A stretch of 64,000 bases of DNA from Patescibacteria group bacterium (GTDB lineage: Bacteria > Patescibacteriota > Patescibacteriia > UBA9570 > JAHJKD01): the NCBI GenBank assembly GCA_043798935.1, contig JAZDOC010000017.1, positions 64,381 through 128,380 on the forward strand. Direction: 5' to 3'. Made by a program: the position numbers and the translations under genes. Positions 26,701 through 49,301 of this stretch are shown here, one piece after another. Within the stretch, counting starts at the first letter, position 1. Each line of letters opens with the position of its first letter. The notes beneath the pieces are model-generated. The model made no database searches and was not told the origin of the DNA. It was given only the letters and a program-made list of their open reading frames with translations.

Positions 26701-29700
26701 GTGAGCCGGATGAAGAAACCACAATTACTACTTCTACCATTACCCCAACTTCATATACCGTTTCAGCTTTATCATCTGTAATCGAGCGCACTATTTCAGC
26801 CAGTTCGCCATCTACCGGAACACCTCGAAGCGGTGGTGAATTACCGGGACGGGGTGAAATTGTTGGCCCATCTTCTACCAGCACTGATTACGATATTGTT
26901 TTTGTTATTGATAATAGTGCGGGCTTAGAATTTTATGATAATGACCTTGATGATGGTGATGGTTCTTATAGCGACTTCATGGATGAAGACGATGTTGGTT
27001 GCCTGCCCCAAGGTTATGGTGCTACTTGTGAGAGTTATTCAGACATGGAAACATATATTCAAAATTTAGCCGATACTGTAACTGGTTTTTCGAGTGAATT
27101 AGACTCTAACGGTTTGACATATAAAATGGCCGTGGTTAAAGCTAGTAATCCGAGTGATGACTGGAGACCAGAAGTAGTTCAAGACATGACGAGCAGTGTT
27201 TCTGATGTGGTTAATACCATTACAGATTTAGGAAATAATGTTAGCGGTCATGAGGAACATATTTATGAAGCACTGAATTATTCTCGAGGAACTTATGTTG
27301 AAAGTGGTTATAGATTTAGCATTAGTTATGACACAGGCGCTACCAGAATAGTAATACTTTTAACTGATGCATATCCAAGTAGCGATACTCCTTCTAGTTT
27401 AGGTGATAGTTATACTAATAGTCATGGAACAAGCGGTGTTTCTTGGGATAGTTTTGATGAACGTCCTTTAAAAGAGGATATTGGAACAGGCTATACTTTA
27501 TATGCAATAGTTTCAAGTAATGATAGAACAGTTGATTATGCTTCAACTTATTATAATCCTTCGGGTGAAGCCACAACAATACTATATACTGGCACTGTTT
27601 ATGCTAATGAACCGGCTTATGACGCAATCGCATCATATACGGGCGGAGCGATTTATGAAATAGATACGGCTGATTATAATACAATTTTTTCCAGTATTAC
27701 TGATAGTATAATGGCCGATCGGGACACTGATGGCGATGGCATAGATATCGATGACGATGCTTGTTCAACTGAAGACGCATCTAGTTGTGATATCGATAGT
27801 GATGGATGTCTTGATGATGAAGATGGTGATGGTGTAAGTGATTGCGTTGATGAATGTTTAGGTTCAGACGCCAGCGATTACGATACCGACAGCAATGGCT
27901 GTATCGACGACACCGACGATGATGGCATTTTAGATGATGCGGACACAGATATCGACGCCGACGGCATAGAGGAAAGAGATTTAGATGAAGATTGGAGCTC
28001 CACTACCGATGGCGCTGAAGGAACAGCCGAGTGCTTCCAGCGCGATGAAAATAGATTTAAAGACGGCACTAATAGTTTAATGATGACCGGCGATTGTGCC
28101 ATAGTGAGCGATTATGTACCAATCGAAAGAAACAAACTTTATACACTAGAAGCATATTTCAGTATTGAAGAATATGGTCAATATGAAGGCGAAGATGATG
28201 ATAAATACCAGGATGTAAGCATTGGTGCATATTTTGTTAAATATAATGAAGACAGAAACACTTGGGAATACGTGGAAGCAACTGATGCTCAAACATATTT
28301 TGTGGCTGATAATTTAACTGTCACCCCGACCGACTATGAACAATCTGATGATTTTTCAACCGATACATCTGACCAGGATCTTTATAGCAAATGGTTGAAA
28401 GTGTCTGGTAATATCGGCATAGGATCAGACGTAGAAATCCCTGAAGATGCGGAGTTTGTTAGAATATATCTGGAAGCTAAAAATCATGGTGATGTATTAT
28501 CGCCTTGGTTCGATAAAAATGTTTGGTTTGATAGTGTAAGCTTTAAAGAGAATGATAAATATTTCATGATCGACAGCACTGTTGACGGCACTGATGAAAG
28601 AGAAGCTACTGATGAGGTGCACACTTGTATTGATCAAGACACTGAAGAAGAGGCAGTCACTTCCGATGGTGGGTGCGTAGCATTTAGAGACGCATTAAAA
28701 GATTCACAGTATTATGTACAATTTGTGACCGATGGTACATGCAATAGTTGTTCTATTACCCCAAACAGTGATTCTTGTCGGGGCGTAATTGACGCTTGCG
28801 ATACTAATGCCATATTAAAAGTTCAGAAAGATCGTGTTTGCGATGAATGGGTGGCTTGCGAGACTGCAGAAATTATTGAAGATAGCAGTGGCAGTTCAAA
28901 ATATACCTGTTTCAGTTTACAGCCGTGTAATAAAATTAACGATGAAGGTAAATGTATTTCCTGGGTGCCAAAACCGGTTTATGAGGATTTGGATACCCAA
29001 ACTGATATAACTTATTATACTGCCGCCGGCGATACAGACCAACTATATGCCATGCAAAATTTAACCGGTTATGTTAAGGCCGGTTTAACCTGGAGCGATT
29101 ATAAAATGTGTAATGGTGGTATTAATGCTGGTAATTATTGCACTTCTAATGATGACTGCTTAGATGTTGGAACATGTGAAAGCGAAGTTATTGATTTACC
29201 GGACGAAGATGGAGGTTTGGGTATGGATATTATACAATTTGTCTGTCTCGGTGGTTCGAAAAACGGTGAAGATTGTGCCAGCTCTTCTGCCTTTGGTCTT
29301 AGTGGTGATGATTCGCTTTGCGAAGGCGACTGGGATGGCGCATGTAACTTACCACTAATCGTTGAAGGTTATTATCCTTACGGTTGGATGTATGAAGCCG
29401 GAGAAGCCGGGTCTGAATACGGCGTTGAACTTATAGAATATAATAATTTTGAAAATTTATATTGTGCTGGCAATAAAATTAAAAATAGGATTCCTTGTAT
29501 AAGTAACAGCTATGAATCTGAAATCGGTAGTCATTGTTGGTCGGCTAATTTAGAAGTATATCAGAGCGACGAAGATCCTAATAATGATCCAGTTGAAGGA
29601 ACTTCAGGTGAAGATAATAAGTCAGCAGATTATTATTGTGCTAATTCAACTGAATGGAGTGAATTCCCTTTCAGCCAGCCGGCTGAATATACCGAAACCG

Positions 29701-32700
29701 GATGGTCTGGTTATATTGGTAATGAAAAAGTACAAGTGAAACAATATGATAATCAATATGGTGATAATGAGAGTATAGACATTAATAATGTGCTTAAAGC
29801 ATCGGGCGCCATGACTTCTGCTGGCGAAAACATCGGGTTAAAATATGATTTAAGCACAAATATTCAAAATAATGGATATTATGCCTTGTCTTTTAAAGGT
29901 CTTTATACTAGCAATTATTATAACGCCAATTCTGACAAACCAAGTTCAATTAGCGTGGGTTTGCGACATAATAACATAGTCACCGACGGCACTGATACTG
30001 AAACGCAAAATATTGATTGGTTTATTCAGGGTGCGGGCATGGCCGATGTGGTGTTTGTAATCGACAGTTCAAGTTCAATGAGCGGTTATATGGCTGGTGT
30101 AAAAACTGCGGCTACTGATTTAGCATCTCAGCTTCAAGCAGTCGGCATTGGCGCTAAATTTGCCATTGTTGATATGGACTATTTATCTTCATCATTATCT
30201 GGTCCTTATGAAAGGGGACAGGAATACAACAATGTTAATACATTAGATCTTGATTTAACAGATAATTTAAGCACATTTGGTAATTATATAGATACTTACA
30301 TTCAAGCAGCGCAAGCCCAAGTTGATCCTTTTGCTGCTGTTCAACAAGTAATAAACAACGATTTAACTTTAGTAGATCCTCTTGGCCCGCTTGATAGTTC
30401 AGAAATATCATACCGCGACGCATCGGAAAAAATAATTATTGTAGTTACTGATACTTATGATGAATATGTGGAGTATGATAGTCGCGATACCTCAAGTTAT
30501 GCTGGTGCTTATGATTTAGAAAACAATATTCCTTATGATGGTTATTATGCCGACTTCTTAAATAGTTCCGGATTTACCGTTTATACTATCACTACGCCAA
30601 CCATGTATAATTATGGCGATTATAATGATCTAGCTTCTTATTCTGGCGGTGCAGTTTATGATACGCTTTCTACTACAACGGCCAACTGGACTGCTACAAT
30701 TCTAGACATTTCTGATCGCATTATTGCCAATGCTGATGTATTCCAATTTTCGCAGAGCTTAGATAGCTTCGCTTTCGGACCAATTAAAGTAGTTGAAAAA
30801 AATCCTTGCACTGATAGCGATTGCGACCCGGTTGAAAATGTAGCTTCAGGTGAACTCGTCACATCAGACTTAATCTTTGTTAGCAATGACGGTATGTCGT
30901 TTGAAATTGACGACGTTTTTTTACTACCGGTGCTTGAAGTAAATAAAAATTTAAACCCGATTAGCCGATCTTGCCGAGCCTACGCTAAAGATGGAGATAA
31001 AGAGTGTGTTTATACTGAACCAAATGGCGTACAGCACAAAGGTTGGAGAGGATATTGTCTTGAAGCTGACCCGGAAAATAGTAGCCGTTGTATTACTTGG
31101 TGGCCGCTTGATGTAATTGCGGGCGAATCTACCATGTACACGCGTGAACGTGGCGGGTATAGTGGTCGATCCAATGTTTATATGTGTTTAGCCGCTAAAG
31201 GTTATGAACGCCCTGGTTTTTGTAGTGGCACTGATGTTGAGGGAAATGATTATGATAATTTAGCTCCTGGCGATGGTGTATTATGCCAACCAGGAAGTTG
31301 GGATGATACAATGGGTCGAAGTAACACATGTGGTGCTGGTGGTTTAAGCAGATGTTTTTATGGCGCTGAAGATGTAATTTCTGAAGAGTATAGCCGTGAT
31401 GGAGGTTTTGTATGTGATGTTTTATTAGCCGCAATGATTTTTGAGTGCGGAGAGAGTTATTTAATAACTGGCGGTTTAACAATTTCGGCTAATCCTTTAT
31501 GTACAGCGGCAATTACAGCTTATTCTCTAGAGTGTTTAGCCGGCTCTGGAGGAGATAATATAGACAATACTTATACAGAAAAATTTATTCATGATCCCGG
31601 TATCTGCCAAGTACAAGATGATGATGATTTACAAACAGATTGTGGAGCATACCCTTCAGAAAATACCTGGGTATGTTCTACCGATACTATTACCAATCAA
31701 GATGAGTGTGAAGAAAGCGGTGCAACATGGAGCTTGGCAAATATTAATGTCTTCGACAGTAATATAACTTATACTGGCAAATGTATTTATTATAATAATT
31801 ATGAGGACTATGGAGATGATCAAGATTTATCTGCCACACATACTTATTGTTTTTATGATGGAAATGAAGACGGTATTACTGAAATTAGAAGCACCTTTGA
31901 TTGTAATAGCGACAGTGTATGTCAAATTAGCCCTACTGTTACTGGCAAGCAGTGCGCACCCATGCAATGTGTGGGCACGAATTCTACACCATGCAGTCCG
32001 GCTTCCTGTGATGACCGATATGGTGCGTTGGTATTAAAGGGTTTACAAGCAGTTGCTAATACTCTTGATCCGTCAGGTTATACTGCTCAAGTACTTCCCG
32101 GTCTATTAACACATAATTGTGAACCAGAAGAAGCTTGCGGACAGCCGACCACTTTGCATAATAATACTAACAATTACGGTTTAGTGACTCGCAGTTGGCA
32201 GATGTATGATCCGTATCATATAAATTTAAGTGAGAAAAACTATGGTGTTATTTCCAAATTAGAAGCTAATGTGGCCGAAAAAAATATTAATATTAGTGAA
32301 ATCGAAAGTATCGATATTTTCTTGGGTGATGCCGGTAAAGGTAGCGGTGGTGATGAAGAAGCATTATTCTGGGGGCAAGGCGGTAGCGATAGTGATGGAC
32401 CTTTTAAGGATGACAATGGCACTATTACAATTACTGATTTAGCGGCGGGTTCAATTCCCGAAGAAGGCGCTGATGGTAGTAGCGACGGCCCGTGGTCGCA
32501 TTGTATGGGTGTTGACCAAGGTTCAATTGAAGGTGCAGGTTGTTGGTGGTGGGGTCAGTACGATAGCCGTGGAAAAGCCGATAAAGTTGGCGTTTATACC
32601 TCTGATGGAAATCCGATTAACGACGACAGTACTTATGATTTAGTATATGTCTGGGGTTGGAGTGATTTCATGAAGCATGATAGTGGCTGTAATGGTACCG

Positions 32701-34409: not shown

Positions 34410-37157
34410 ATGAGAAATTTTTTAGCCAAATTAAAAAAAATATTTATTACAAAGCCGATTTATGCCTTATTCGCTGTTTCTATTATTAGCATCGGCTTAA
34501 TTTTTCCCATATCATCATGGGCTCTGGATCCGGTTGCTTGGGTGGCTGATAGCATAACAGTTGATTTGGCTCGAATTTTAGTTTGGCTGATGTACATGCT
34601 TTTTATTTTTATTGCTGGCCAGCTCGGAACTTGGCTTACTGGCATGATGGTGTGGGCTTCCGGGTTTACGGGTTTTACAAATATCAGCGTGGTCACTGAA
34701 ACTTGGATGGTGGTTAGAGATTTATGTAATCTGCTTTTTATTGTCATGTTATTAATCATTGCATTTGCTACCATACTGCAGATTGAATCCTACTCATACA
34801 AAAAATTACTGCCAAAATTAATAATTGTGGTATTACTTATAAATTTCAGCCAGATGATTTGCGGTCTTGCGGTAGACGCGGCCCAGGTGGTAATGCTTAC
34901 TTTTGTAAATGCTTATAGCGGAGCCGCTAAACAAGGTTTTTATCAATTATTCCAGCTAAAAGATCTAGTAGATTTAGGATGGGATAAAGAAATAGATGCC
35001 GTCAGTACAGTTGCCGGCGCAAATGGCAAGAAAAATTGGCAGAACATGGATTATTTGCTAGCCGTATTTGCTTCGGGCGTAATGCTTACGCTAATCTGCG
35101 TAATCATGATAACAATATTTTTAACTTTAGTTGCCAGAATCGTCTTTATTTGGACGCTTACTATATTGTCTCCATTAGCTTTTGTCGCTTCAATTCTTCC
35201 TATTACTCAAAAATATTATCAGCGTTGGCTGTCTATGTTTGGTCGGTATATTGCGGTTGGTCCACTGCTGGCTTTTTTTGTCTGGTTGGCTTTATTTGTT
35301 GTGGTTAAAGCTGGGGATAGCGGTATATCTAGTCAACTAACTATACCTGGCTCCGGGCTTGTGGACGGTCCTAGTAACCTGACTGTAACTAAAGCGCTTG
35401 AGCCGGATGTTTTTATTAATTTTACCATTGGCTGCATGATGCTAATGATTGGCATTAAACTCGCGCAGGAAATGTCCTCGGAAATTAGCGGCATGGTCAG
35501 TAAAATTGCCGACATGCCGAAAAATGCCGCCAAGTGGTATGCCACCCGGCCGTATGCTTTGGGTAGATGGGGTGTTGGAAAAGCTTGGGGCGGTGTCAAA
35601 AAAGAAGCATTGGCTCGGGCCTCTTTATTGAATTCTCAAATATATGCTAAAACCGGTATTCAACTCAATCCGGCAAAGCGTTTGGAAGGAAAGCTTCGCG
35701 AAATAAACGAGGAAACACACTTAAATGAAGTAAAAGGCGAAATAGGTGGATTAGATCATATTGGAAGAGGCGAAGGCATCAGAGGATGGGCGGGTGCGCC
35801 CGGTTCGTTTTGGCGTTATTCTGGTCCGTTAAAAATGTGGGGGCAAAAAGGCGATCAAAAAATGCAAGAAAAATTAGCTGTTAGAAAAAAAGAACTAGAA
35901 GAAAGTGAAAATTATAAAAAAAATGTTCAAAGCGCAGCTGACGCAAGAGATAGAGTGGTTAATGGACAAGAACCAGTTAAAACAACGGCTCAAAATAATC
36001 TGGAAACACTAGACAGAAAAGCACAGTTAAAAGCAATGATGGATAGCATGAAAAAACTCGATGGCAATATAGATCAAGAAAAAATTATTGGTGCTATTAA
36101 AAGTCTTGGTTTACAGGACTTATATATGAATGGCAATGCATTGAAAGATGACTTTTTATCTGATTTAGAGAATGTTGATACTGAAAGAGAAGAGCAAAGA
36201 ACAAGCATAAGAACTGCTGATGCAGAAATCGGAAAAGCTCATGAACAATACGAAAAGGCTATTGAAGCAGCCAAACCGCAAGAGTTAAAAGATATTAATA
36301 AACAGATGGAAGGACTTTCCTTTGTATTTGATCCACGTAAAATGAAATTGTTGCAAGAGCATACTACTAAAATGTCTGATGGTTATAAAACTATAAATGA
36401 TGGTGAAATAGTTGATATGTATCGTAGTTTAGTGAGAATGGGAAAACATAATGAAGCATTGGCCTTATATTATCATGCTGCTAAAGTGGGCCATGGTAAC
36501 GAAATATTGAAAGCAGAAAAATTGCCTGTTAACGGCGAAGGCTTAGACAAAATGGAAAAAAAGTTTAAAGATGCTGGTTTAGGTGAGCAATATGTAAGAA
36601 GTGTAATGAATATGGCTAGCCAAGCCGCTGAACATAACGGCCATAATGCAATTGCCAGATGGTATACTAGTGAACATGGCCAAATAAAGCGCATCAGCCA
36701 GGAAGAGCACGATTTAATTACTGCAATTGAAGCTAGTAAAGAAGGCATTAGAACCAACTTGAGCAATGGTAATCATATGCGTTGGGGCGAGTATGATGGT
36801 CAAAAGAATTGGTCAATGCAAAATGCAATGTTGCATATGTTAATTCGCGGCGTAGATAAAAATGTAGCTCATAGTATTGAACATGGTCATACGGTTATTG
36901 GAACAAATTTAGTTCATTCATTACGTAAAGAAATGGTAGAAACTGCCGCATTAATTGGTGCGGCAGAAAAAGAAGGCAATGGCCACGTTGTTAAAATTTT
37001 AACTGATATTATAGGAGCCGATAAACTTGCGCAAGTTAGGTCCACTCAGGGTGAAAAAATTGGACAATTAGTCCAAAGTAAGTTAGCAGCTGTTCATAGA
37101 ATAGATCATAGAATAACCCCAGACTCCTCGCATAGGTTTGGCGTTGGCATATCCTAG
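34410..37157 (+). CDS. Polytopic membrane protein of 915 aa, a candidate VirB6/TrbL-like T4SS channel component with a long hydrophilic coiled-coil C-terminal domain.
   Basis: About 8 predicted TM helices lie in the first ~350 aa, followed by ~550 aa that are hydrophilic and coiled-coil rich. The gene starts 10 nt after the giant gene. The assignment rests on topology, not sequence. Confidence 0.45.
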   Translation: MRNFLAKLKKIFITKPIYALFAVSIISIGLIFPISSWALDPVAWVADSITVDLARILVWLMYMLFIFIAGQLGTWLTGMMVWASGFTGFTNISVVTETWMVVRDLCNLLFIVMLLIIAFATILQIESYSYKKLLPKLIIVVLLINFSQMICGLAVDAAQVVMLTFVNAYSGAAKQGFYQLFQLKDLVDLGWDKEIDAVSTVAGANGKKNWQNMDYLLAVFASGVMLTLICVIMITIFLTLVARIVFIWTLTILSPLAFVASILPITQKYYQRWLSMFGRYIAVGPLLAFFVWLALFVVVKAGDSGISSQLTIPGSGLVDGPSNLTVTKALEPDVFINFTIGCMMLMIGIKLAQEMSSEISGMVSKIADMPKNAAKWYATRPYALGRWGVGKAWGGVKKEALARASLLNSQIYAKTGIQLNPAKRLEGKLREINEETHLNEVKGEIGGLDHIGRGEGIRGWAGAPGSFWRYSGPLKMWGQKGDQKMQEKLAVRKKELEESENYKKNVQSAADARDRVVNGQEPVKTTAQNNLETLDRKAQLKAMMDSMKKLDGNIDQEKIIGAIKSLGLQDLYMNGNALKDDFLSDLENVDTEREEQRTSIRTADAEIGKAHEQYEKAIEAAKPQELKDINKQMEGLSFVFDPRKMKLLQEHTTKMSDGYKTINDGEIVDMYRSLVRMGKHNEALALYYHAAKVGHGNEILKAEKLPVNGEGLDKMEKKFKDAGLGEQYVRSVMNMASQAAEHNGHNAIARWYTSEHGQIKRISQEEHDLITAIEASKEGIRTNLSNGNHMRWGEYDGQKNWSMQNAMLHMLIRGVDKNVAHSIEHGHTVIGTNLVHSLRKEMVETAALIGAAEKEGNGHVVKILTDIIGADKLAQVRSTQGEKIGQLVQSKLAAVHRIDHRITPDSSHRFGVGIS

Positions 37158-39055: not shown

Positions 39056-39523
39056 ATGCAAATGAATTTTGTGGTGCCACAATTTATTGAGGTCGAGAGT
39101 AAAGTAATCGGTCCTATTTCGATTCGTCAATTTATTATTTTATTGGTCACGGCCGGTTTTCTGTGGCTCTTTTGGACCATTCTAACATTTTGGTTTGCGG
39201 CTATTGTCGATATATTCTGTTTGGCCGTGGGCGGTACTTTTGCTTTTGTAAAAATCAACAGCCAACCTTTTCATATTTTTGCTTTGTGTTATGTGCAAAC
39301 CATGCGGTCGCCAGCTTTAAAAGTTTGGCAACGCGAACGTAATTTCATACTTAAAAAAATAGAGAAAAAAGCTAAACCCACAGTTGCGCCGGCTTACAAA
39401 GCGGTTCCAACACAATCGCGCCTAACTGAATTATCGCTTCTAGTCGATACAGGCGGTGTTTATAAGCCTGAGGAATTGCAAGATCAAGTTCAACAAAAAT
39501 TAAATTCACAATCTAACAAATAA
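39056..39523 (+). CDS. PrgI/VirB3-like small membrane protein.
   Basis: 155 aa with two TM helices, followed by the FAFVKINSQPFHIFALCYV motif that resembles the Gram-positive T4SS PrgI family. It sits directly upstream of VirB4, as in prgI-prgJ. Confidence 0.5.
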   Translation: MQMNFVVPQFIEVESKVIGPISIRQFIILLVTAGFLWLFWTILTFWFAAIVDIFCLAVGGTFAFVKINSQPFHIFALCYVQTMRSPALKVWQRERNFILKKIEKKAKPTVAPAYKAVPTQSRLTELSLLVDTGGVYKPEELQDQVQQKLNSQSNK

Positions 39524-39527
39524 AAAA

Positions 39528-40223
39528 ATGTCTTCGTCAGCTAAAACAGAAATGCAACATAAAACAAAACAAATTCCTTCAACGCAAAAATATTTACCAA
39601 TTGCGGAGATTAAAGACGACCTCGTGGTTTTAAAAGATGGCACCTTGCGCCAGGTGTTGATGGTGTCTTCCATTAACTTTGCTTTAAAAAACGAAGATGA
39701 ACAGCAGGCTATTATTAATGGCTATGTTCAGTTTTTAAATACTTTAGATTATCCCATTGAAATTGTTATTCAATCGCGTAATTTAAACATTGATGCTTAT
39801 ATCAATAAATTAAAAAAACTCGCTAAAGTGCAAACCAACGAACTGCTGAAAATTCAAACCATCGAGTATACCAATTATATTCAACAAATGGTAGAATTAT
39901 CTCAGATCATGGAAAAAAGATTTTTTATTGTTGTACCGTATTCGCCATATTCCAATAAACCAAAAAGTTTCTGGACTCGATTGCAAGAAGTTTTATCTCC
40001 CGGCAGCGTAATTAAATTAAATGAAGAAAAATTTAATAAGTTTAAAGAAGAATTAATTCGTCGTACTTCCATTGTGGCCAGCGGATTAACTTCAATTGGT
40101 TTAAAAGTCGCTCCGCTTGATACCCAGGGTTTAATAGAATTGTATTACCAAGCTTATAATCCGTCGCGGGGCAAGCCAAAAATTCTACCCGATATTAATC
40201 AATTGAAAATAGAAGAAAAATAA
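39528..40223 (+). CDS. VirB4/PrgJ-family T4SS ATPase, N-terminal domain fragment (split gene).
   Basis: 231 aa. The segment DDLVVLKDGTLRQVLMVSSINFALKNEDEQQAIINGYVQFLNTLDYPIEIVIQSRN matches the conserved N-terminus of Gram-positive VirB4 homologs. Its stop TAA (40221-40223) overlaps the next ATG (40223-40225). Confidence 0.65.
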   Translation: MSSSAKTEMQHKTKQIPSTQKYLPIAEIKDDLVVLKDGTLRQVLMVSSINFALKNEDEQQAIINGYVQFLNTLDYPIEIVIQSRNLNIDAYINKLKKLAKVQTNELLKIQTIEYTNYIQQMVELSQIMEKRFFIVVPYSPYSNKPKSFWTRLQEVLSPGSVIKLNEEKFNKFKEELIRRTSIVASGLTSIGLKVAPLDTQGLIELYYQAYNPSRGKPKILPDINQLKIEEK

Positions 40224-42118
40224 TGATTGATTTAAGAGATTCAAAACTACAAGCTCAGAAAAAATTACCGCTGGTCGATGAATCAACCAAAGAACAGCGC
40301 GAACAAGCCCGAGCCCGACAAATAGCCAAAGATCAAGAGGCTAAAGATTTAATTACCGCCAAAAACATTTATGAAAGTGGCGTCACTTACGTATTAGATT
40401 TAATTTCACCGGCCGCTTTAAAAGCCGAACCGCGTTATATAGATTTAGGCGGTAAATATTGCTCTACCATGTTTGTGGTTTCTTACCCGCGTCATATTAA
40501 TGTTGGCTGGTTTGCGCCCATCATTAATTTGAATTTATCGCTCGACATTGCCATGTATTTTTATCCGGTGAAATCAAACATTATTTTAAAACAATTGCGC
40601 AATAAAGTTGGTTCGCTGGAAGCTGAATTAATTTCTGATTCGGAAAAAAGAGCACCGCGTGATCCGGTTAAAGAAACCGCTTTGCGCGATATCGAAGGTT
40701 TGCGCGATAGTTTAACCCAGGGAACCGAAAAGTTTTTTCAATTCGCTTTGTACATTACAATTTATGCGGACGAAAAAAAAGAGCTGGAAGATTTAATGGA
40801 AAAAATGGATTCCATGTTTGGCTCGAAATTAGTGACGGCTAAACGTATTTTTTATCAGGCCGAACAAGGTTTTAATTCCACCCTCCCTTTAGGCATCGAT
40901 GAAATTCAAGTTTATTTCAACATGAATTCTTCACCGTGCGCTTCATCCTTTCCGTTTATTTCTTCGGAATTAACATCAGATAACGGTATTTTATACGGCG
41001 TTAATCGTCATAATAATAGTTTAATATTATTCGATCGTTTCAGTTTACAAAATGCCAACTCTGTGGTTTTCGCTACTTCGGGCGCCGGTAAAAGTTATAC
41101 CATTAAATTGGAAGTTTTGCGTAGTTTGATGATGGGAACCGATGTTATTATTATCGATCCGGAAAATGAATACAAGCATTTAGCCGACGCTGTTGGCGGA
41201 ACTTATATTAATATCTCTTTAAACTCGGATGCTAAAATTAACCCGTTTGATTTACCGCGTCCGGTTGGTGGCGCCGATAAACCGGCCGATATTATTAGAA
41301 CAGCCGTAATTACTTTAAAAGGTTTATTGCGTTTGATGCTGGGAAAAATTAGTGATGCCGAAGATTCTATTATGGACAGAGCTTTGATTGAAACTTACGC
41401 TAAAAAAGATATTACGGCTGATACGGATTTAAGCTTAGGCGTGGAACCGCCAATCATGGCCGACTTTCAGAATATTTTGGAAGGTTTTGAAGGAACGGAA
41501 AATTTAGTTATCAGGTTAAAGAAATTTACCGAGGGTACTTTTTCCGGATTATTCAACAGTCCCACAAACATTGATATGAAAAATCAGCTAGTCACTTTTT
41601 CCGTGCGTGATCTGGAAGACGAATTAAGACCAATCGCTGTTTACAATATTGTCACTTATATTTGGAACGTTGTACGCTCTAAATTAAAACAACGCATGTT
41701 GATTATCGATGAAGCTTGGTGGCTAATGCAGAGCGAAGACAGCGCTAAATTTATTTTTGCCTTGGTAAAACGTTGCCGAAAGTATTATCTGGGTGTCACT
41801 ACAATTACTCAAGACGTAAACGACTTTTTACTTTCTCCTTATGGCAGAGCAATTGTTACCAATTCGGCCATGCAGATTTTATTAAAACAGTCGCCGGCCG
41901 CGATCGACAACATCGCCAAAGTATTTATGTTAACCGAAGGCGAGAAATATTTATTGCTAGAGGGTAATGTGGGCGAAGGCATATTCTTTGCAGGCGAACG
42001 GCACGTAGCCATTAAAGTTGTGGCCTCGCAAACCGAAGATCAAATTGTCACATCCGACCCGCGGCAATTACTGGAAATTGAAGAGTCTAAAAAGGAATTC
42101 GCGGCTCAAAATTCTTAA
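40223..42118 (+). CDS. VirB4/TrbE/PrgJ-family type IV secretion ATPase, C-terminal ATPase portion.
   Basis: 631 aa. It has Walker A VVFATSGAGKSYTI and the VirB4-typical Walker B MLIIDEAWWLM (DEAW), plus C-terminal conserved blocks. Confidence 0.85.
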   Translation: MIDLRDSKLQAQKKLPLVDESTKEQREQARARQIAKDQEAKDLITAKNIYESGVTYVLDLISPAALKAEPRYIDLGGKYCSTMFVVSYPRHINVGWFAPIINLNLSLDIAMYFYPVKSNIILKQLRNKVGSLEAELISDSEKRAPRDPVKETALRDIEGLRDSLTQGTEKFFQFALYITIYADEKKELEDLMEKMDSMFGSKLVTAKRIFYQAEQGFNSTLPLGIDEIQVYFNMNSSPCASSFPFISSELTSDNGILYGVNRHNNSLILFDRFSLQNANSVVFATSGAGKSYTIKLEVLRSLMMGTDVIIIDPENEYKHLADAVGGTYINISLNSDAKINPFDLPRPVGGADKPADIIRTAVITLKGLLRLMLGKISDAEDSIMDRALIETYAKKDITADTDLSLGVEPPIMADFQNILEGFEGTENLVIRLKKFTEGTFSGLFNSPTNIDMKNQLVTFSVRDLEDELRPIAVYNIVTYIWNVVRSKLKQRMLIIDEAWWLMQSEDSAKFIFALVKRCRKYYLGVTTITQDVNDFLLSPYGRAIVTNSAMQILLKQSPAAIDNIAKVFMLTEGEKYLLLEGNVGEGIFFAGERHVAIKVVASQTEDQIVTSDPRQLLEIEESKKEFAAQNS

Positions 42119-42141: not shown

Positions 42142-42774
42142 ATGTTTGCCCAAAAAAAATTCATTATAATCGTCACCGCTCTTTTAGCATTATTATTCAT
42201 TGGCTTTGGTGTAATTTTCTATATTTATCAAAATCATCAAACTGAAATTAAACCAGAAAACAGCAATACCAATATAGCTGTTAATAACACTAATAATCAA
42301 ATCGATAATCAGGGGAATATTATTATTGATGAAACAAATAACAATGCCAACAGCGCGTCGCCGGCTGAAAGCGAAACATTTGTGGCTACCCAAGCTAATC
42401 AAACAAATGCCATTTTAAAGCTGGCTAAAAATTTTGCTGAGCGCTTTGGAACATATTCCAACGAGAATAATTACGATAACATCAGAAATTTAAAAAATAT
42501 TTCCAGCACTGAAATGCAAGCCTGGCTGGAAACTTTAATTGATAATAATAGCAAGAAGCCAAATGAAGCGTTTAGTGCTGTGACCACTAAAGCTTTAACA
42601 GTTGATTTATTAAGTTTTGATGTTGGATCAAATATCGCCGAAGTAATGGTAAGCACTAGCCGTAGTGAAGAAGCAGAATTTTCCACTGAAAAGAAAACAT
42701 ACACTCAAAAAATAAAAATTGAAATAATCCAGGAAAATAATTCTTGGAAAATAAATCGCGCTTATTGGCAATAA
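42142..42774 (+). CDS. Bitopic membrane protein, possibly VirB8/TcpC-like (NTF2-like C-terminal domain). Speculative.
   Basis: It has an N-terminal TM (FIIIVTALLALLFIGFGVIFYIY), an N-rich linker and a ~120-aa alpha/beta C-terminal domain. Confidence 0.35.
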   Translation: MFAQKKFIIIVTALLALLFIGFGVIFYIYQNHQTEIKPENSNTNIAVNNTNNQIDNQGNIIIDETNNNANSASPAESETFVATQANQTNAILKLAKNFAERFGTYSNENNYDNIRNLKNISSTEMQAWLETLIDNNSKKPNEAFSAVTTKALTVDLLSFDVGSNIAEVMVSTSRSEEAEFSTEKKTYTQKIKIEIIQENNSWKINRAYWQ

Positions 42775-43202: not shown

Positions 43203-44471
43203 ATGAATAATCCAAGCTCACAAAATTTACAATCAGAAATGGGAGAGCAAATAAAAGATGCTGTTAAAAGTAATCCTAATTTAAGTGTGGGCGAGGCGAT
43301 TAGCGACTTGTGTCAGCATCCAAAATTTCAAAAATTATTATCAGATTCCGTCATGGCTTTACCGCTTCAATATATTGATGCTGATACATCAGCCGATGTA
43401 AAACGAGCCGGTGCTATGAAAGCCATGGTAGCCACCGCCGTTATGGCTGATGCTGTAGTTCAAGCGCAAAAAGAGCAAGAAATGCAGGATATAGCCTTAG
43501 AAGCTTTAATGGCTCATTTAATGTTGAATGGTTTAAATCCTGAACAAGCTGAAAGTTATGCCCGAAACGCCATGGGTCATCCGGCTACGGATTCTGCACC
43601 CGAGGAAGATCAGAAAGCAGATGAGCATGGTCAAAAACAAGCTCAAGATGCTCAAGCCGTCGCTTCAGATGCCGAAGGCGATGGAGAACAACCAGATGGC
43701 GAAACAGGTGAAGGCGAACCAGACACTCCCCAAGAAACCGTTGAGCCTGGCAAAGAAGATGAAGCCGCCAGAAAATTACAGGACGAAAAAAATAAAGATG
43801 CTCAAAAAAAAGAGGGTGAGCAAGAAGACGGAGATAAAAAAGAAGGCGAAAACCCTGAAGGTGAGGGAAAAGAAGACAAACAACCCGGCCAAGAAGCTGG
43901 TGAGGAACCAGGTGAAGACCAAACCGCTTCACCCGAACAAGAAACGGCCGAGCCGGAAGAATCAGAGGATCAGAATGCTGAGAATCAAGAAGGGGATGAA
44001 GGCCAAGAAGGTGAAAATCAAGGTGCGTCGCCGGAAGAACAATCTCCGGAAGGAGAGTCCCCGGAGGCTAAACCAGAAGAAGAGGCTGACAAAGGCCGTG
44101 AATTAGCTGAAGATAAAAAGGAAGATGAAGATAAAGAAAGTAATATTCCAAGTAAAGATGAATTAGCAAAAGCCGTTAATAAAATAAAAAAAGAAACCGA
44201 ATCAGCTCTAATTGAAGCGTTTCTCAGTGGCCTGCCTGAAAGTTTATTGTTGTTATTAATACCTTTTGTTCCGCCCATAAATATTCCTTTGGGAATTTTA
44301 GCAATTAAGTTTGGTTTTGATGGAAAAATAGATTTTGATATGCCATTGTTAGGAAAAATTAAATTGATGGATTTTGATGCGTTAGAACGTGCAATTATGA
44401 TCTCGTTTGGAGTGGCTTGTTTTTTGGAATATATCATTGGATTTGTATTGTTGCTTTATTTTTTTAATTAA
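43203..44471 (+). CDS. Extremely acidic, low-complexity (E/D/G/K/Q-rich) protein with a C-terminal membrane anchor.
   Basis: 422 aa. Residues ~120-330 are almost entirely E/D/K/G/Q/P repeats (EGDGEQPDGETGEGEPD...). The C-terminal ~80 aa carry two hydrophobic helices (LLLLLIPFVPPINIPLGILAIKF, ISFGVACFLEYIIGFVLLLYFF). The lysine-rich and other ORF-track entries overlapping this gene are out-of-frame low-complexity artefacts. Confidence 0.5.
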   Translation: MNNPSSQNLQSEMGEQIKDAVKSNPNLSVGEAISDLCQHPKFQKLLSDSVMALPLQYIDADTSADVKRAGAMKAMVATAVMADAVVQAQKEQEMQDIALEALMAHLMLNGLNPEQAESYARNAMGHPATDSAPEEDQKADEHGQKQAQDAQAVASDAEGDGEQPDGETGEGEPDTPQETVEPGKEDEAARKLQDEKNKDAQKKEGEQEDGDKKEGENPEGEGKEDKQPGQEAGEEPGEDQTASPEQETAEPEESEDQNAENQEGDEGQEGENQGASPEEQSPEGESPEAKPEEEADKGRELAEDKKEDEDKESNIPSKDELAKAVNKIKKETESALIEAFLSGLPESLLLLLIPFVPPINIPLGILAIKFGFDGKIDFDMPLLGKIKLMDFDALERAIMISFGVACFLEYIIGFVLLLYFFN

Positions 44472-44513: not shown

Positions 44514-45896
44514 ATGAACATGCTTTTAGCGAAAAATAAACATTTATTCATTAGGTTTCTAACAGCGCCTATTTTTTTAATTATACTAAATTTTATTCCG
44601 AAAAGTGCACAAGCTGAAGGCGAAAAGCAATATGTAAAAAATATTGGTTATTTATTAGAAGTTCCTATTCCTACAATATCCAGCGGTGGTGTTTCGCTCG
44701 TAAATAATATTGTTGAATATGTTCAACTGATTTATGAAGTGAGTATCTCTATAATTGCGCCATTAGCAGTAGTGGCTATTATCTATGGCGGTGTTAGAAT
44801 TGCCTCTTCAGCCGGAAATGAACAGTCTATTACATCTGGTAAACAAGTAATTATTTCAGCTATTATTGGTTTATTAATACCATTATTAAGCTATAGCGGT
44901 TTAAAATTAATAAATTCTCAATTAGTTGATTTGCAGAATATACAGGTTGAGAAAATAGTTTACGAACCCGATACAGAACCAATTTATACTTTACCGGATT
45001 GCGGTCGTGATTCACGTTTTGAAGATTGCAAAGATACACTTTGCGGGGAAACTTGTTTTAACGAAGAATTAGGCTTAAGTTGTCGCGGTGAAAAAGCAAA
45101 TTCGGCTAACGCTACGGCAAGTTGTTCAGGAAACATGACAGTTATTGGGTCAGGCCCTGGTCAGTGCGAGTGTTACCCATACGCTACAAGCATAACCGAG
45201 GGAAAAATAAAATATAAGATGCAGAGTGCAGATTGCGTCGATCCGGCAATAATAGCAGTTCAAACTTATGATAAATTATATAAAGACAGAAAAGATCGTG
45301 AATTTATGGTGAATGCAATGACTGCGCTTTCCATTTGTGGTAATAATTTTGAACCTTTCTACAAACAAAGCGATATCATGGCAATTGACGAATATGTTGA
45401 TCTTGTATTTGGCTGGTCACATATGGAATTAATGAATAATATGCTAAATCGAAATATGGCAGCGTCTACTTTGTTTTATATTACTTTAAATAAATCATGG
45501 CATTCTCAAACTAACCATGTATATAGTGATCTTTTTGGATTTTGCGCACAAAGGAACAATTATGTTTTTAAAAGTCATAGCCAGTTAGAAACAACAACAA
45601 ATTGTGAATTTAATCTAAATTGCGGAATTCATCCTAGTTATAACGATGCTAGTGATATTTTTGGTTTATTTTGTATGCCTAACGATTGGTCTCAGCTTTT
45701 ACTTAACGGACACGAATATAAAGCTAAAGACATGTCGTCTTTTAATGCTAGCCAGTTTAAAAAAGCACTTTTTTGGGGTGAATATTTGGTCGGTAAATAT
45801 TATAACGGTACTGCTACAAGTTATGATAATGAGTTTATCATGACTCAAGAAATTGCCAATAAATTGGATAATAATCAATACGAAAGTTTTCACTAA
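44514..45896 (+). CDS. VirB2/TrbC pilin-like N-terminal domain fused to a ~300-aa Cys-rich C-terminal domain.
   Basis: It has a signal peptide and two hydrophobic helices separated by a short loop (IAPLAVVAIIYGGVRIASSAGNEQSITSGKQVIISAIIGLLIPLL). It is paralogous to residues ~60-150 of the 47910-49301 protein. The C-terminal domain has about 14 Cys and no recognised motif. Confidence 0.5.
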   Translation: MNMLLAKNKHLFIRFLTAPIFLIILNFIPKSAQAEGEKQYVKNIGYLLEVPIPTISSGGVSLVNNIVEYVQLIYEVSISIIAPLAVVAIIYGGVRIASSAGNEQSITSGKQVIISAIIGLLIPLLSYSGLKLINSQLVDLQNIQVEKIVYEPDTEPIYTLPDCGRDSRFEDCKDTLCGETCFNEELGLSCRGEKANSANATASCSGNMTVIGSGPGQCECYPYATSITEGKIKYKMQSADCVDPAIIAVQTYDKLYKDRKDREFMVNAMTALSICGNNFEPFYKQSDIMAIDEYVDLVFGWSHMELMNNMLNRNMAASTLFYITLNKSWHSQTNHVYSDLFGFCAQRNNYVFKSHSQLETTTNCEFNLNCGIHPSYNDASDIFGLFCMPNDWSQLLLNGHEYKAKDMSSFNASQFKKALFWGEYLVGKYYNGTATSYDNEFIMTQEIANKLDNNQYESFH

Positions 45897-45900
45897 AATT

Positions 45901-47136
45901 ATGCAACTAACAGATTTACAAAAGAAAATATTATACTCAGCTCTATTAATAATAGTGGCAATTGGCATGGCGATTATTATTTATATAGTGTTTTTTAAAG
46001 CGCCTAAAGAAGAATTAATTAATGTAAATGGCGAGCTTGTGCCTGAAAGCATATTTCCGGAAATAAACGCTAATGTTAATCAGGATATTGATGTTAGTAA
46101 TACTAATGCTTTTAATGGCGTGCCCACAATCGATTCGGTAGCGCGTGGATCCAACACTTTAACCGACACATTAACCGATGAAAGTGCCTCTGATATGACG
46201 CTTTCAGCCAATGGCAAGGACGTCCAATATTACAACAGCGAAGACGGAAAGTTTTACCGCATCAACGAGCTGGGTGAAAAAATTGCCATGAGCGATGAAA
46301 TTTTTAAGGGTGTAAATAATGTCACTTGGTCTAACAGCAGCCAATCCGCTGTATTAGAGTTTGATGATGATTATAATTTATTTTACGATTTTGAAAAAAA
46401 GAAGCAATATACTGTTCCTAAAGAAATGGAACAATTTACCTTCTCACCGACTGATGACCAGATTGGTTTTAAATATATGGCCATCGATAAAGAAGATCGC
46501 TGGTTGGGGGTAATGGATCCGGACGGTTCAAATCCTCGGGGCTTGGAAAAACTTGGCGATAATGCCGATAAAATTGAAGTAAATTGGTCGCCATCCGGAA
46601 AAGCCGTTGGAACTTTTAATGAATATATCGACGGTAATCGTCAGCGTGTAATTCCGATTGGTCTAAATAGCGAGAATTTTAAACAAATGACGGTTGAAGG
46701 CAGAGGTTTTGAATATGCTTGGTCGCCAACCGGAAAACAAATGCTTTATAATGTTTTTGGTTCATATTCAGATTATCAGCCGACTTTATGGATAGTTGAT
46801 GCTGAAGGTGAACAAATCGGCGAGAATCGCACGGCTTTAGAAATGAACACGTGGGTAGACAAATGTACTTTTTCTAGCAAAACTCAGCTTTATTGCGCTG
46901 TACCGCAAACCTTGCCGACCGGTGCCGGCTATGCGCGTGATGTGGCTGACAATATTCCGGATAATATTTATAAAATAGATTTAGCAACCGGTAAAAAAGA
47001 ACTAATGGCTATTCCCATTAATGCTTTTGGTACCGAACAGTATACCATTAATAATATGCAGGTCTCTGATGACGGTGCTACTTTGTTTTTTACTGATGTT
47101 CAACAAAACAATATTCATAAATTAAAATTAAAATAA
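45901..47136 (+). CDS. Membrane-anchored beta-propeller protein (TolB/PD40-like repeats).
   Basis: It has an N-terminal TM (LYSALLIIVAIGMAIIIYIVFF) and repeated WSPSGK/WSPTGK PD40-like motifs. I place the start at MQLTDL (45901); the ORF track begins at 45853. Confidence 0.5.
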   Translation: MQLTDLQKKILYSALLIIVAIGMAIIIYIVFFKAPKEELINVNGELVPESIFPEINANVNQDIDVSNTNAFNGVPTIDSVARGSNTLTDTLTDESASDMTLSANGKDVQYYNSEDGKFYRINELGEKIAMSDEIFKGVNNVTWSNSSQSAVLEFDDDYNLFYDFEKKKQYTVPKEMEQFTFSPTDDQIGFKYMAIDKEDRWLGVMDPDGSNPRGLEKLGDNADKIEVNWSPSGKAVGTFNEYIDGNRQRVIPIGLNSENFKQMTVEGRGFEYAWSPTGKQMLYNVFGSYSDYQPTLWIVDAEGEQIGENRTALEMNTWVDKCTFSSKTQLYCAVPQTLPTGAGYARDVADNIPDNIYKIDLATGKKELMAIPINAFGTEQYTINNMQVSDDGATLFFTDVQQNNIHKLKLK

Positions 47137-47137
47137 C

Positions 47138-47917
47138 ATGAAAAAAAACAATTTCCATTTATCAGATACTACAGTTTTAATTATTGTTGCTGTAATTGGT
47201 TTATTACTGCTTGTATTTTTTTTATTATTTGGATCAGCACTTGTTCAAGGCATCTTTGCTTTACCGGTTGAAAGTAATAATACCAATACTAATGCATCAC
47301 AAATTGCCAGCTCTACTAATAACGGCGGTTTGGAATTAGGCTATGATCCATTGATTACTATGGTGCCGGAAGATCTCCAGACGCTTGGCAAAAACAGCAA
47401 AGTGTTCATCTCCGATGTTGATCCTTATCTGGGTTCGTCGCAGGCTAAAGCCGTGGTGGTTGTATGGTCGCGCTTCGATAACGAGCAAGCCAAGGAAAGT
47501 GCTGATATTCTTAAGCAAATTTCTAATGAATATGGCGATAAAATTGTAATTATATGGAAAGATTTTATTAATCCTGATAATAATAACGAAATTGGCTATT
47601 CGGCTGCGCTGGCCGCTCATTGTGCTAATGAGCAAGATTTGTTTTGGCCGTATCATGATTTATTATTCGATAATTATGATCATTTAGACGCAAATACTAT
47701 AAGCGAATTAGCGACCACGGTTAATCTAGATATGAATATTTTTAATGAATGTATCGACAATCAATCTACTAAAGCGATTGTTGAAAGCAACTATTATCGC
47801 GGCCTTAGCGCCGGCATTACTAATGCGCCGGCAGTGTTTGTAAATGATGCCATGATAGACGATGCTCTTAATATTGATACTCTTAAAAATGCAATTAATG
47901 ATAAAATAAATGAATAA
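47138..47917 (+). CDS. DsbA-like thioredoxin-fold protein lacking the CxxC active site (predicted catalytically inactive).
   Basis: It has an N-terminal TM and retains the DsbA-family motif AAHCANEQDLFWPYHDLLF. Where the family places the CPxC active site it has VVVWSRFDNEQ, and the protein contains no CxxC. Confidence 0.55.
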   Translation: MKKNNFHLSDTTVLIIVAVIGLLLLVFFLLFGSALVQGIFALPVESNNTNTNASQIASSTNNGGLELGYDPLITMVPEDLQTLGKNSKVFISDVDPYLGSSQAKAVVVVWSRFDNEQAKESADILKQISNEYGDKIVIIWKDFINPDNNNEIGYSAALAAHCANEQDLFWPYHDLLFDNYDHLDANTISELATTVNLDMNIFNECIDNQSTKAIVESNYYRGLSAGITNAPAVFVNDAMIDDALNIDTLKNAINDKINE

Positions 47918-49301
47918 TAAAAAAATAATATCATATTTTTTTGCGCTATATTTTGTAATCAGCGCCTTTATCCCCCTTATTTCTTTAGCCGGGTCCGCAA
48001 CAGCAACAACCCCAACAGCTGCAAAGAGCACGGTACCAGCCGCTTGCACGGATTTTGCGGATAAGGAAGTGGAATGGACTCAGCAAGAAGATATCATGTA
48101 TTTTTTAGAAGTCCCATTATTTGGCAAGCTTTATGTCACTAATTGGAACGATTATCTGGAAACCGTTTATAATTTTTCCATTACTTTAATTCCTATTTTT
48201 TCTTTAGCCGCTATGTTTTACGGCGGTTTTCGCTGGGCCGCATCGGCCGGCAATGAGCAAGCTATTACTAGTGCTAAAAATGTAATTACTTCAGCTATTA
48301 TTGGATTATTAATTGCTTTACTAGGCTATGGTATGGCTGGGCGCATAAATTCGGCATTAGTAGATAATCACGATGTTAGAATATATAAAATTCCAATTGC
48401 CAATCCTTATGATAGTAGCTGTGAACTTCCGCCGGAAAGTAGAGTTGATCTGGCTATTAGTGCAGTAGCGCCTCATCAATTTGCTTCTTCAACTATTAGC
48501 TCTGGTGGATGTCCAAATCTTAAAGTAGCTATCGAAAAAGCTTTGGTTAATTTAAGTGCACTGGCAGTTACAAAAGGCGCGCCTATTGTATTGAGTGGAT
48601 CGGGTTGGCGTTCAGCTGAAAGGCAATGGTATTTCTTTGCCTGTTATTGCAATGCTCAAATTACCGGTGAATGTAAAAGCGGTGCATGCAATGGATGTCA
48701 ATATTGTGAATCTAATAATTGTAATTTAGCGTCTAAGCCGTGTGATGGCGATTCATCTCGGCATCCGCGCGGTTTAGCCGTAGATGTTAAAATTGTTGGA
48801 ACAATTTTAGAAGGGCATGGCACAACCGGTTATAATTGTCTTAGAGGAAGCCATCCAACCGATAAAAGTTTTGGTTTTTCGCTAAGTGGAAAAGATAAAG
48901 CAATTTGGGATGCATTAAAACCAGAAGAACAAAAATCCCTATGTGAGTGGCAAAAAGACTTAAAAGAAGCCATGACTGGCGGTCCGGGAACGCCTTATGA
49001 CACTAACCCTACCGGTTTAAAAGGAATAAAGTCAGAGTGGTGGCATTTTCAATTATCATCGACAACGGCTTGTTTCGAACTCGGTACTTATGGGCTATCT
49101 TGTCCTTGCAAAGATTCAGCTCCTACAAATTGTCCAACCGGCCAACATGCAGTATGTAAGTTGAAAGATAACTCGTATTCTCAAAGCGAAGGTTGGCAAT
49201 GTATGGATTCTTCAATTGGAAGTGAGAAGAAAACAATAACAAAAATGATTAGCGGCAATGGTGTCGCCACTCTTTATAATTTTAGCTGCATAGTAAATTA
49301 G
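47910..49301 (+). CDS. VirB2/TrbC pilin-like N-terminal domain fused to a Cys-rich linker and a LAS-family (M15/VanY-like) zinc peptidase domain.
   Basis: The N-terminal segment YFLEVPLF...AAMFYGGFRWAASAGNEQAITSAKNVITSAIIGLLIALLGYG is paralogous to the 44514 gene. The C-terminal domain has SRHPRGLAVDV (SxHxxGxAxD, nt ~48753) and SEWWHFQ (ExxH, nt ~49030), the zinc-ligand signatures of D-Ala-D-Ala carboxypeptidase / LAS peptidases. Confidence 0.55.
   Translation: MNNKKIISYFFALYFVISAFIPLISLAGSATATTPTAAKSTVPAACTDFADKEVEWTQQEDIMYFLEVPLFGKLYVTNWNDYLETVYNFSITLIPIFSLAAMFYGGFRWAASAGNEQAITSAKNVITSAIIGLLIALLGYGMAGRINSALVDNHDVRIYKIPIANPYDSSCELPPESRVDLAISAVAPHQFASSTISSGGCPNLKVAIEKALVNLSALAVTKGAPIVLSGSGWRSAERQWYFFACYCNAQITGECKSGACNGCQYCESNNCNLASKPCDGDSSRHPRGLAVDVKIVGTILEGHGTTGYNCLRGSHPTDKSFGFSLSGKDKAIWDALKPEEQKSLCEWQKDLKEAMTGGPGTPYDTNPTGLKGIKSEWWHFQLSSTTACFELGTYGLSCPCKDSAPTNCPTGQHAVCKLKDNSYSQSEGWQCMDSSIGSEKKTITKMISGNGVATLYNFSCIVN

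Follow-up and report, generated by a model that had tools for sequence, protein, structure and literature searches.

Two genes of one cluster in a Patescibacterial genome encode proteins in which the same pilin-like N-terminal module is followed by unrelated cysteine-rich domains, and one of these domains has the catalytic residues and the fold of a LAS/M15 zinc peptidase. The genes are found together with those of a type IV secretion system (T4SS) in a stretch of 64,000 nucleotides (the window; positions 64,381 to 128,380 of contig JAZDOC010000017.1), and their products are here called p1 and p2. We put slightly better than even trust in the reading that p1 and p2 are modular surface proteins of the T4SS, in which the pilin hairpin anchors or docks extracytoplasmic payloads, that of p2 being wall-degrading. 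The two proteins and their parts are as follows.

44514..45896, + strand: p1, 460 amino acids (aa), with a signal peptide (aa 1-34), the hairpin (aa ~41-150), a Cys-rich module (aa ~151-285) and a unique C-terminal region (aa ~286-460)
44634..44963, + strand: pilin-like module of p1, with a beta-hairpin 'YLLEVP...', a helix at 66-98, the loop SSAGNEQSITSGK and a helix at 103-133 (family profile E 2e-33)
44964..45368, + strand: Cys-rich module of p1, with the pattern LPxC...C..T.CG.TC...G..C.G, common to few relatives
45369..45893, + strand: C-terminal region of p1 (last ~175 residues), an orphan with no relative in homolog, Pfam or PHROG searches
47910..49301, + strand: p2, 463 aa, with a signal peptide, a segment containing Cys46, the hairpin (aa ~59-163), the LAS/M15 domain (aa ~185-385) and a Cys-rich tail (aa 386-463)
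48084..48398, + strand: pilin-like module of p2 (PF18895 E 5e-3; family profile E 2e-36; hidden Markov model (HMM) envelope 59-163)
48462..49064, + strand: LAS/M15 peptidase domain of p2, with the invariant residues R234, Q239, H285, D292, E376, W378 and H379 (codons, in the same order and on the same strand, at 48609, 48624, 48762, 48783, 49035, 49041 and 49044)

The shared pilin module

Both reading frames were found in the sequence just as first listed. The similarity between p1 and p2 is confined to their N-terminal parts. BLASTP aligned residues 32-148 of p1 with residues 50-161 of p2 (54/117 identities, 46%; E 3e-24), and the remaining segments gave nothing significant (best E 1.1). Because only this N-terminal segment of 117 residues aligns, the N-terminal paralogy is real and the C-termini are unrelated, as the original prediction, which was made from the sequence alone, had maintained. 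No further pilin-domain open reading frame (ORF) was found when the whole window was scanned with the family profile, the next ORF after p1 and p2 having an E value of 0.046.

In both proteins the module consists of a short beta-hairpin (Y-x-LEVP...) and a pair of long hydrophobic helices with the loop S/AAGNEQxITSxK between them. Topology and signal peptides were read from hydropathy and from AlphaFold (AF2) models. By hydropathy the helices were placed at residues 69-100 and 106-134 of p1 and at residues 85-107 and 118-147 of p2, each protein having in addition an N-terminal signal-like segment. The helix-loop-helix of the AF2 models was at 66-98/103-133 in p1 (pLDDT >90) and at 79-111/116-146 in p2; the confidence of the p1 model was >90 for residues 40-130 and <50 for residues 200-400. 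The signal peptides are predicted to end at ...IPKSAQA in p1, followed by EGEK, and at ...ISLAGSATA in p2, followed by TT. Hydropathy and AlphaFold thus agree on the arrangement first proposed for both proteins, a signal peptide and two hydrophobic helices with a short polar loop between them.

The C-terminal extensions of about 300 aa had been described as Cys-rich, and the distribution of the cysteines bears this out. All 14 Cys of p1 were at or beyond residue 163, and the 20 Cys of p2 comprised Cys46 and 19 at or beyond residue 171, with none in either hairpin. The Cys content was 3.0% in p1 and 4.3% in p2, compared to 0-0.5% in four proteins of the same cluster described below (VirB4, the TrsD-like protein, the VirB6-like candidate and the PD40 protein); PrgI and the DsbA-like protein had 1.3% and 0.8%, respectively. 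Across the family, the payloads had a median of 6% Cys and the hairpin was almost free of it.

The payloads are predicted to be extracytoplasmic, because helix 1 would run in and helix 2 would run out after a cleaved signal peptide, with the N-terminus also outside. An uncleaved signal peptide would result in three spans and leave the payload outside all the same. Of 117 relatives, 95 had an even number of Cys after residue 25 (binomial p 5e-12); together with the topology, this supports the earlier proposal that the C-terminal domains are extracellular. In p2 and its closest relatives, one Cys before the hairpin (C46) was paired with an odd number of Cys after it, a pattern that suggests a disulfide bridging both external ends of the hairpin.

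The hairpin can be assigned by its sequence to the Patescibacterial T4SS_pilin family, PF18895, and the assignment is solid at the family level. PF18895 matched 108 of the 117 single-module relatives at E<=1e-3 (best E 4e-11) and was the sole Pfam match for p1, on which PF18895.6 is also a precomputed annotation; the NCBI product names are 'pilin' for p1 and 'hypothetical protein' for p2. The TrbC/VirB2 model PF04956 matched two of the 117 relatives (best E 1e-4), with relative P0099 at E 0.019, and among the NCBIfam models there were weak matches to NF045849, a 'pilin-like conjugal transfer protein' of a mycoplasma integrative and conjugative element. Of the traits of the T4SS_pilin family, the signal peptide, the two-helix hairpin and a nearby virB4 (also present in the related contigs L003 and L002, see below) were found here. 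At 460 and 463 aa, p1 and p2 depart from the small stand-alone size of about 100-190 aa.

Payloads and their recurrence

The payload of p2 is, judged from its residues and fold, an active-looking LAS/M15 zinc peptidase. Across 16 aligned pilin-M15 fusions, R234, Q239, H285, D292, E376, W378 and H379 were invariant. By comparison with VanX and VanY, these include the substrate-binding Arg, the zinc ligands of H-x6-D, and the catalytic base and the remaining ligand of E-x2-H; the residues of the p2 family align to the VanX motifs SSHSRGSAID and EWWH. The profile of the pilin-M15 family matched VanX (1r44; E 6e-8) as well as VanY, VanXY, LdcB and the L-Ala-D-Glu peptidase Ply500, and the p2 domain has the LAS fold. 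A PDB sequence search with p2 alone gave no match, and neither did a PHROG search with the payloads of p1 and p2.

Fusion to a payload is the rule within this pilin subfamily. The profile used for the exhaustive search (397 positions) unintentionally kept the SLT part of relative P0004, such that its 48,824 matches include SLT-only proteins and the list of the top 150 is enriched for SLT fusions; the matches were therefore re-scored with a pilin-only HMM. Among the 148 representatives nearest to the module, 118 had a single module and 111 of these had >=150 aa after it (median 210 aa). In the Pfam-scanned set of 117 proteins, mostly drawn from these representatives, the payloads were SLT (38, a count inflated because the search profile retained the SLT segment), SLT_3 (6), Peptidase_M15/VanY/M15_4 (about 16), GDSL (2) and NlpC/P60 (1), and many payloads had no Pfam assignment. 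A domain of the SLT or lysozyme type occurs, for example, in P0004 and in L001:37-930. Precomputed Pfam annotation already shows the architecture, for example as PF18895+PF01464 on P0004, so it is latent in the databases and not unknown to them. The fusions had been called atypical for T4SS pilins; this is true relative to the pilins that have been described, but not within the subfamily.

A further 27 of the 148 representatives were tandem 'poly-pilins' with 2-8 T4SS_pilin modules (P0027, P0015, P0012, P0039, P0095 and others). Some of them bear an extra tail of 130-320 aa, and we found no description of them in the searched literature.

The arrangement of the genes also recurs. In contig L002 (CAYMXY010000079.1, 5.7 kb) the order is pilin-Cys-rich protein, PD40 protein, CxxC-less DsbA-like protein, pilin-M15 protein and recG. 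This contig is labelled 'uncultured Gammaproteobacteria bacterium', yet it is syntenic gene for gene with the Patescibacterial locus; it is probably mis-binned and really from the Candidate Phyla Radiation. In a sister metagenome-assembled genome (MAG), JBAZVM01 (contigs L003 and L001), VirB4 is followed at some distance by the PD40 protein, a contig break, a pilin-SLT_3-like protein, a pilin-M15 protein, radA and recG. The cassette comes after VirB4 in three independent contigs. In this MAG the assembly breaks inside the repeated pilin module (L003 10001-10177).

The two fusions of the sister MAG (L001 37-930 and ~935-2158) have pilin modules that are 90% identical and payloads that are unrelated, one SLT_3-like and the other M15. 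The pair is direct evidence that payloads were exchanged or modules homogenised, and suggests a recent duplication or gene conversion. Together with the M15/LAS domain of p2 and the SLT, M15, NlpC/P60 and GDSL payloads of the relatives, the difference of payloads in the sister genome lends weight to the idea of an anchor plus payload that was raised at the outset. Synteny in independent contigs, together with the more than 100 relatives in the database, rules out an artefact of assembly or gene fusion.

The payload of p1 is effectively an orphan by sequence comparison. Its Cys-rich module of ~135 residues had phmmer matches to P0040 (E 6e-7) and P0099 (E 3e-5), and none in Pfam, NCBIfam and PHROG scans. 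The positional ortholog L002:769-1809 shares 34% identity with p1, through residue 219. Word-indexed homolog searches returned two matches each for full-length p1, full-length p2 and the C-terminal profile of p1, and a fold search on the p1 payload would be meaningless because its AF2 pLDDT is <50 there. We considered a degenerate SLT_3 or lysozyme-like domain and rejected it (hhalign probability 0.4% against SLT_3-type payloads); no SLT or lysozyme domain was found in p1 or p2 by Pfam scans, or by hhalign for p1. The payload of p1 is a different Cys-rich domain, in the slot that is filled by a lysozyme-like SLT_3 payload in the sister genome.

The secretion locus

According to the ORF list and to Pfam and NCBIfam scans of the 64-kb window, p1 and p2 belong to a same-strand gene run (20772-49301) that also holds the T4SS genes. 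The run starts with a giant Cys-rich protein of 4542 aa that has a VWA domain, followed by a polytopic membrane protein of 915 aa, a protein of 623 aa, PrgI, a TrsD-like protein and VirB4. After VirB4 come two small membrane proteins, an acidic transmembrane protein, p1, a PD40 propeller protein, a DsbA-like protein and p2. VirB4 (up to 42118) and p1 (from 44514) are both on the + strand. Downstream of p2 is recG on the opposite strand, and the flanking genes are of the housekeeping type (PNPase, guanylate kinase, LeuRS, RsmA). The locus is a chromosomal T4SS of Patescibacteria, conjugation-type and similar to the FATA class of mating-pair formation (MPF) systems, as described in PMC12102498. 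The other genes of the run are listed below.

34410..37157, + strand: 915-aa membrane protein, polytopic by the hydrophobic segments of its translation and candidate VirB6-like by its position and the analogy with SEML1_0011/0013; no match in the Pfam scan
39056..39523, + strand: PrgI (VirB3-like) family protein (PF12666 E 9e-8, 33 bits vs cutoff 27)
39528..40223, + strand: TrsD-like protein or split N-terminal VirB4 domain (NF045975 E 7e-11 and NF041427 E 3e-6, both under their cutoffs)
40223..42118, + strand: VirB4-like ATPase, the T4SS signature protein (NF045971 CD1110-family VirB4, E 2e-105, 353 bits vs cutoff 325; PF19044 E 1e-29)
42142..42774, + strand: conserved 210-aa protein with a single transmembrane segment, between VirB4 and the cassette (counterparts by eye at L002:158-772 and L003:6044-6664)
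43203..44471, + strand: acidic low-complexity protein with C-terminal transmembrane segments, directly upstream of p1 (counterpart by eye at L003:6960-8333)
45901..47136, + strand: PD40/beta-propeller membrane-anchored protein, a cassette member (44% identity to L002:1817-3094, E 5e-128; its homolog L003:8396-9637 matches PD40 at E 2e-6)
47138..47917, + strand: DsbA-like thioredoxin-fold membrane-anchored protein without CxxC (PF13462 E 4e-18)

Of the cassette members, the PD40/TolB-like propeller protein is the best conserved in comparison with L002. Its listed TTG start at 45853 overlaps p1, and the ATG at 45901 agrees better with the homologs. The stop of the DsbA-like gene overlaps the start of p2 (47917 vs 47910). 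At the position of CPxC the DsbA-like protein has WSRFDNEQAKE, and its homolog L002:3097-3831 (29% identity) is also without CxxC; it is apparently a conserved, redox-dead thioredoxin fold that lies between two Cys-rich secreted proteins.

The giant protein at the head of the run (20772-34400, + strand) contains 170 Cys (3.7%), the VWA domain and many Asp-rich repeats. An IS200-like Y1 transposase (15476-16042, + strand) and a LysM+M23 peptidase (13665-14927, - strand) are encoded upstream of the cluster.

Role of the fusions and relation to known systems

We suggest the following scheme for p1 and p2. Both proteins would be exported by Sec and lose their signal peptide, after which the VirB2-like hairpin would insert in the membrane with its AGNEQ...K loop in the cytoplasm and both ends facing outward. 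The hairpin would then serve as a shared anchor and docking module that holds a disulfide-rich payload at the T4SS on the outer side of the cell. The payload of p2 would cut the stem peptides of peptidoglycan, with an activity of the D-Ala-D-Ala, L,D-carboxypeptidase or endopeptidase type, and might open the cell's own wall for assembly of the machine, the wall of the host at the contact site, or both. In this scheme p2 provides the peptidase half of a wall-opening activity, and it would therefore be a fused counterpart of the Gram-positive VirB1-like hydrolases and of the 'Hedgehog/DD-peptidase' protein of Southlakia epibionticum.

Several results weigh against this scheme. As single sequences, p1 (24.9 bits, E 2e-5) and p2 (17.3 bits, E 5e-3) fell under the PF18895 gathering threshold of 26.6. 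The 26-sequence module profile was compared by hhalign with eight annotated VirB2/TrbC genes from MPF-T plasmids, which were retrieved by means of a tblastn probe matching annotated virB2 at 100%; the match was colinear over the helix-loop-helix and weak (P 0.0054, probability 6.7%), and the reversed control gave P 0.047. Foldseek found no pilin structure for the hairpin at E<=1e-3, the conjugation pilin of A. pernix (8dfu) being at E 2.7 with a TM(target) of 0.62, and a PDB sequence search with the pilin profile gave no match; both searches are uninformative because a helical hairpin is a non-specific fold. In single-sequence Pfam scans, p2 scored 19.4 bits vs 25 for VanY and 13.3 vs 27 for Peptidase_M15, and the payload of p1 had no recognisable function or family match in Pfam and PHROG scans. 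The DsbA-like neighbour is unusable as support for local disulfide formation because it lacks CxxC. Finally, p1 and p2 are at the distal edge of the cluster beside recG, where a housekeeping role independent of the T4SS is possible.

Because the direct profile comparison is only suggestive, the deeper link to VirB2 is treated as inherited from the T4SS_pilin family, two members of which, SEML1_0018 and SEML1_0019, match both the T4SS_pilin and the TrbC/VirB2 models (Wang et al.). The original prediction of T4SS-pilin topology and identity thus stands through PF18895 and the VirB4/PrgI/TrsD locus, but the direct similarity of the profiles to VirB2/TrbC is weak.

An unlikely alternative is that p1 and p2 are true pilins that VirB4 extracts from the membrane and that polymerise by themselves, or enter as minor or tip components, into a T4SS pilus, with wall enzymes on its surface or tip that would drill into the host wall. 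This could extend to the lipases, binding domains and poly-pilins of the relatives, with payload swapping on a constant module adapting the epibiont to its hosts. In favour of this, the hairpin is predicted to have its two ends outside, with the payloads attached C-terminally, and tandem poly-pilins of 2-8 domains occur in the same family. Peptides fused to the C-terminus of F-pilin are displayed on F pili. Arrays of pilins are essential in S. epibionticum (PMC10633639), and the VirB2-like PrgF has been proposed to form Gram-positive T4SS pili (bioRxiv 10.64898/2025.12.18.695078). However, neither the window nor the available sequence of L001-L003 showed a small stand-alone pilin from which most of a filament could be built, and a domain of 33 kDa on every subunit would crowd a helical filament of the VirB2 type. 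A homopolymeric pilus of 50-kDa subunits would be sterically unlikely; minor or tip incorporation into a pilus may occur.

It is doubtful, and we give it a small probability, that p1 and p2 are housekeeping wall enzymes or ordinary surface proteins, with the hairpin as a mere two-helix membrane anchor and the proximity to the T4SS a coincidence of a compact genome. LAS peptidases of the LdcB and VanY types are indeed housekeeping wall enzymes, the two genes are at the cluster edge, the link to VirB2 is statistically weak, and the separate M23+LysM peptidase shows that wall enzymes are scattered in the window. Yet the module matches a family that was defined on T4SS pilins, the cassette follows VirB4 in each of the three contigs, the genes are on one strand with the DsbA-like stop overlapping the p2 start, and the M15 and lysozyme proteins of S. 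epibionticum are essential and linked to its T4SS.

Improbable in our view is that p1 and p2 are secreted antibacterial effectors, i.e. T4SS substrates that pass into or onto the host bacterium and weaken or lyse it like the X-Tfe peptidoglycan hydrolases of Xanthomonas, with the pilin region as a recognition or translocation element. The payloads (SLT, M15, NlpC/P60, GDSL lipase) do resemble interbacterial toxin repertoires and vary on a constant module, and effector delivery by Patescibacterial T4SS has been speculated upon (PMC11665869). However, the Sec signal peptides and the pair of strongly hydrophobic helices are more in keeping with insertion into the membrane than with recruitment from the cytoplasm through a coupling protein. 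No VirD4-type coupling protein turned up among those window ORFs that were scanned with Pfam and NCBIfam, and no immunity gene was evident.

In a 2024 perspective, the role of the T4SS in Saccharibacteria was called completely unknown (PMC11665869), and in the single genetically tractable species the T4SS is essential for epibiotic growth (PMC10633639). Most genomes with VirB2-like pilins have no recognisable VirB1 hydrolase (PMC12102498). VirB2-like proteins are treated as small and stand-alone in the survey of the Patescibacterial T4SS, in the work on S. epibionticum, in a T4SS review of 2025 and in the PrgF preprint of the same year, and there was no mention of pilin-payload fusions in these four sources. 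The PrgF screen was limited to candidates of 50-150 aa (bioRxiv 10.64898/2025.12.18.695078), so it would by design have passed over the fused class. Pilin modules with wall hydrolases offer a concrete answer to the gap of the missing VirB1. They also bring within reach of tests the question of how ultrasmall epibionts pass through two cell walls, with defined enzymes, defined catalytic residues and a conserved four-gene cassette.

The described PF18895 pilins, SEML1_0014-0019 of S. epibionticum, resemble p1 and p2 in the signal peptide, the two-helix hairpin, the VirB4/PrgI/TrsD locus and the presence of more than one paralog per locus. As in the present locus, no obvious relaxase or coupling protein is found in the loci of such pilins (PMC12102498). 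However, SEML1_0014-0019 are stand-alone proteins of 104-185 aa, whereas p1 and p2 have 460 and 463 aa with Cys-rich payloads of ~300 aa, and the subfamily described here has, unlike those pilins, an additional beta-hairpin, 'Y-x-LE-x-P-x-G', at the N-terminus and an 'INPxLV' tail.

The VirB1-like hydrolases (PrgK of pCF10, TraG of pIP501, CwlT of ICEBs1 and TcpG) resemble p2, and p2 only, in that an anchor is combined with an extracytoplasmic hydrolase in a T4SS operon. They have a single transmembrane helix and a CHAP or NlpC/P60 domain, whereas p2 has the hairpin of the pilin family and a LAS/M15 domain, and p1 is without a recognisable hydrolase domain. The Gram-positive enzymes typically hold glycosidase and peptidase together (PMC12102498), and the sister genome splits them into a pilin-SLT_3 and a pilin-M15 protein. 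In S. epibionticum, SEML1_0006 (two lysozyme-like domains and a Cys proteinase) and SEML1_0007 (a C-terminal Hedgehog/DD-peptidase domain) are essential and flank VirB4 (PMC10633639); as in the present family, LAS and lysozyme-like domains are encoded beside VirB4 in a Patescibacterial T4SS locus. SEML1_0007 has 1113 aa with LAS at 951-1105 and no reported pilin module, and it is likened to p2 by description only.

VanX, VanY, LdcB and the phage L-Ala-D-Glu endolysins (MEROPS M15) share with p2 the Arg, H-x6-D, E-x2-H and the fold, but p2 differs from these enzymes in several Cys-rich insertions, a Cys-rich tail and the tether of a pilin hairpin. The type IV pilus pilins with bulky C-terminal modules, such as PilB and PilC of Streptococcus sanguinis, follow the same logic in an unrelated filament, with adhesins rather than hydrolases as payloads. 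The fusions are thus a modular, enzyme-bearing form of the Patescibacterial T4SS pilins and of the T4SS-associated wall hydrolases, both of which were already known.

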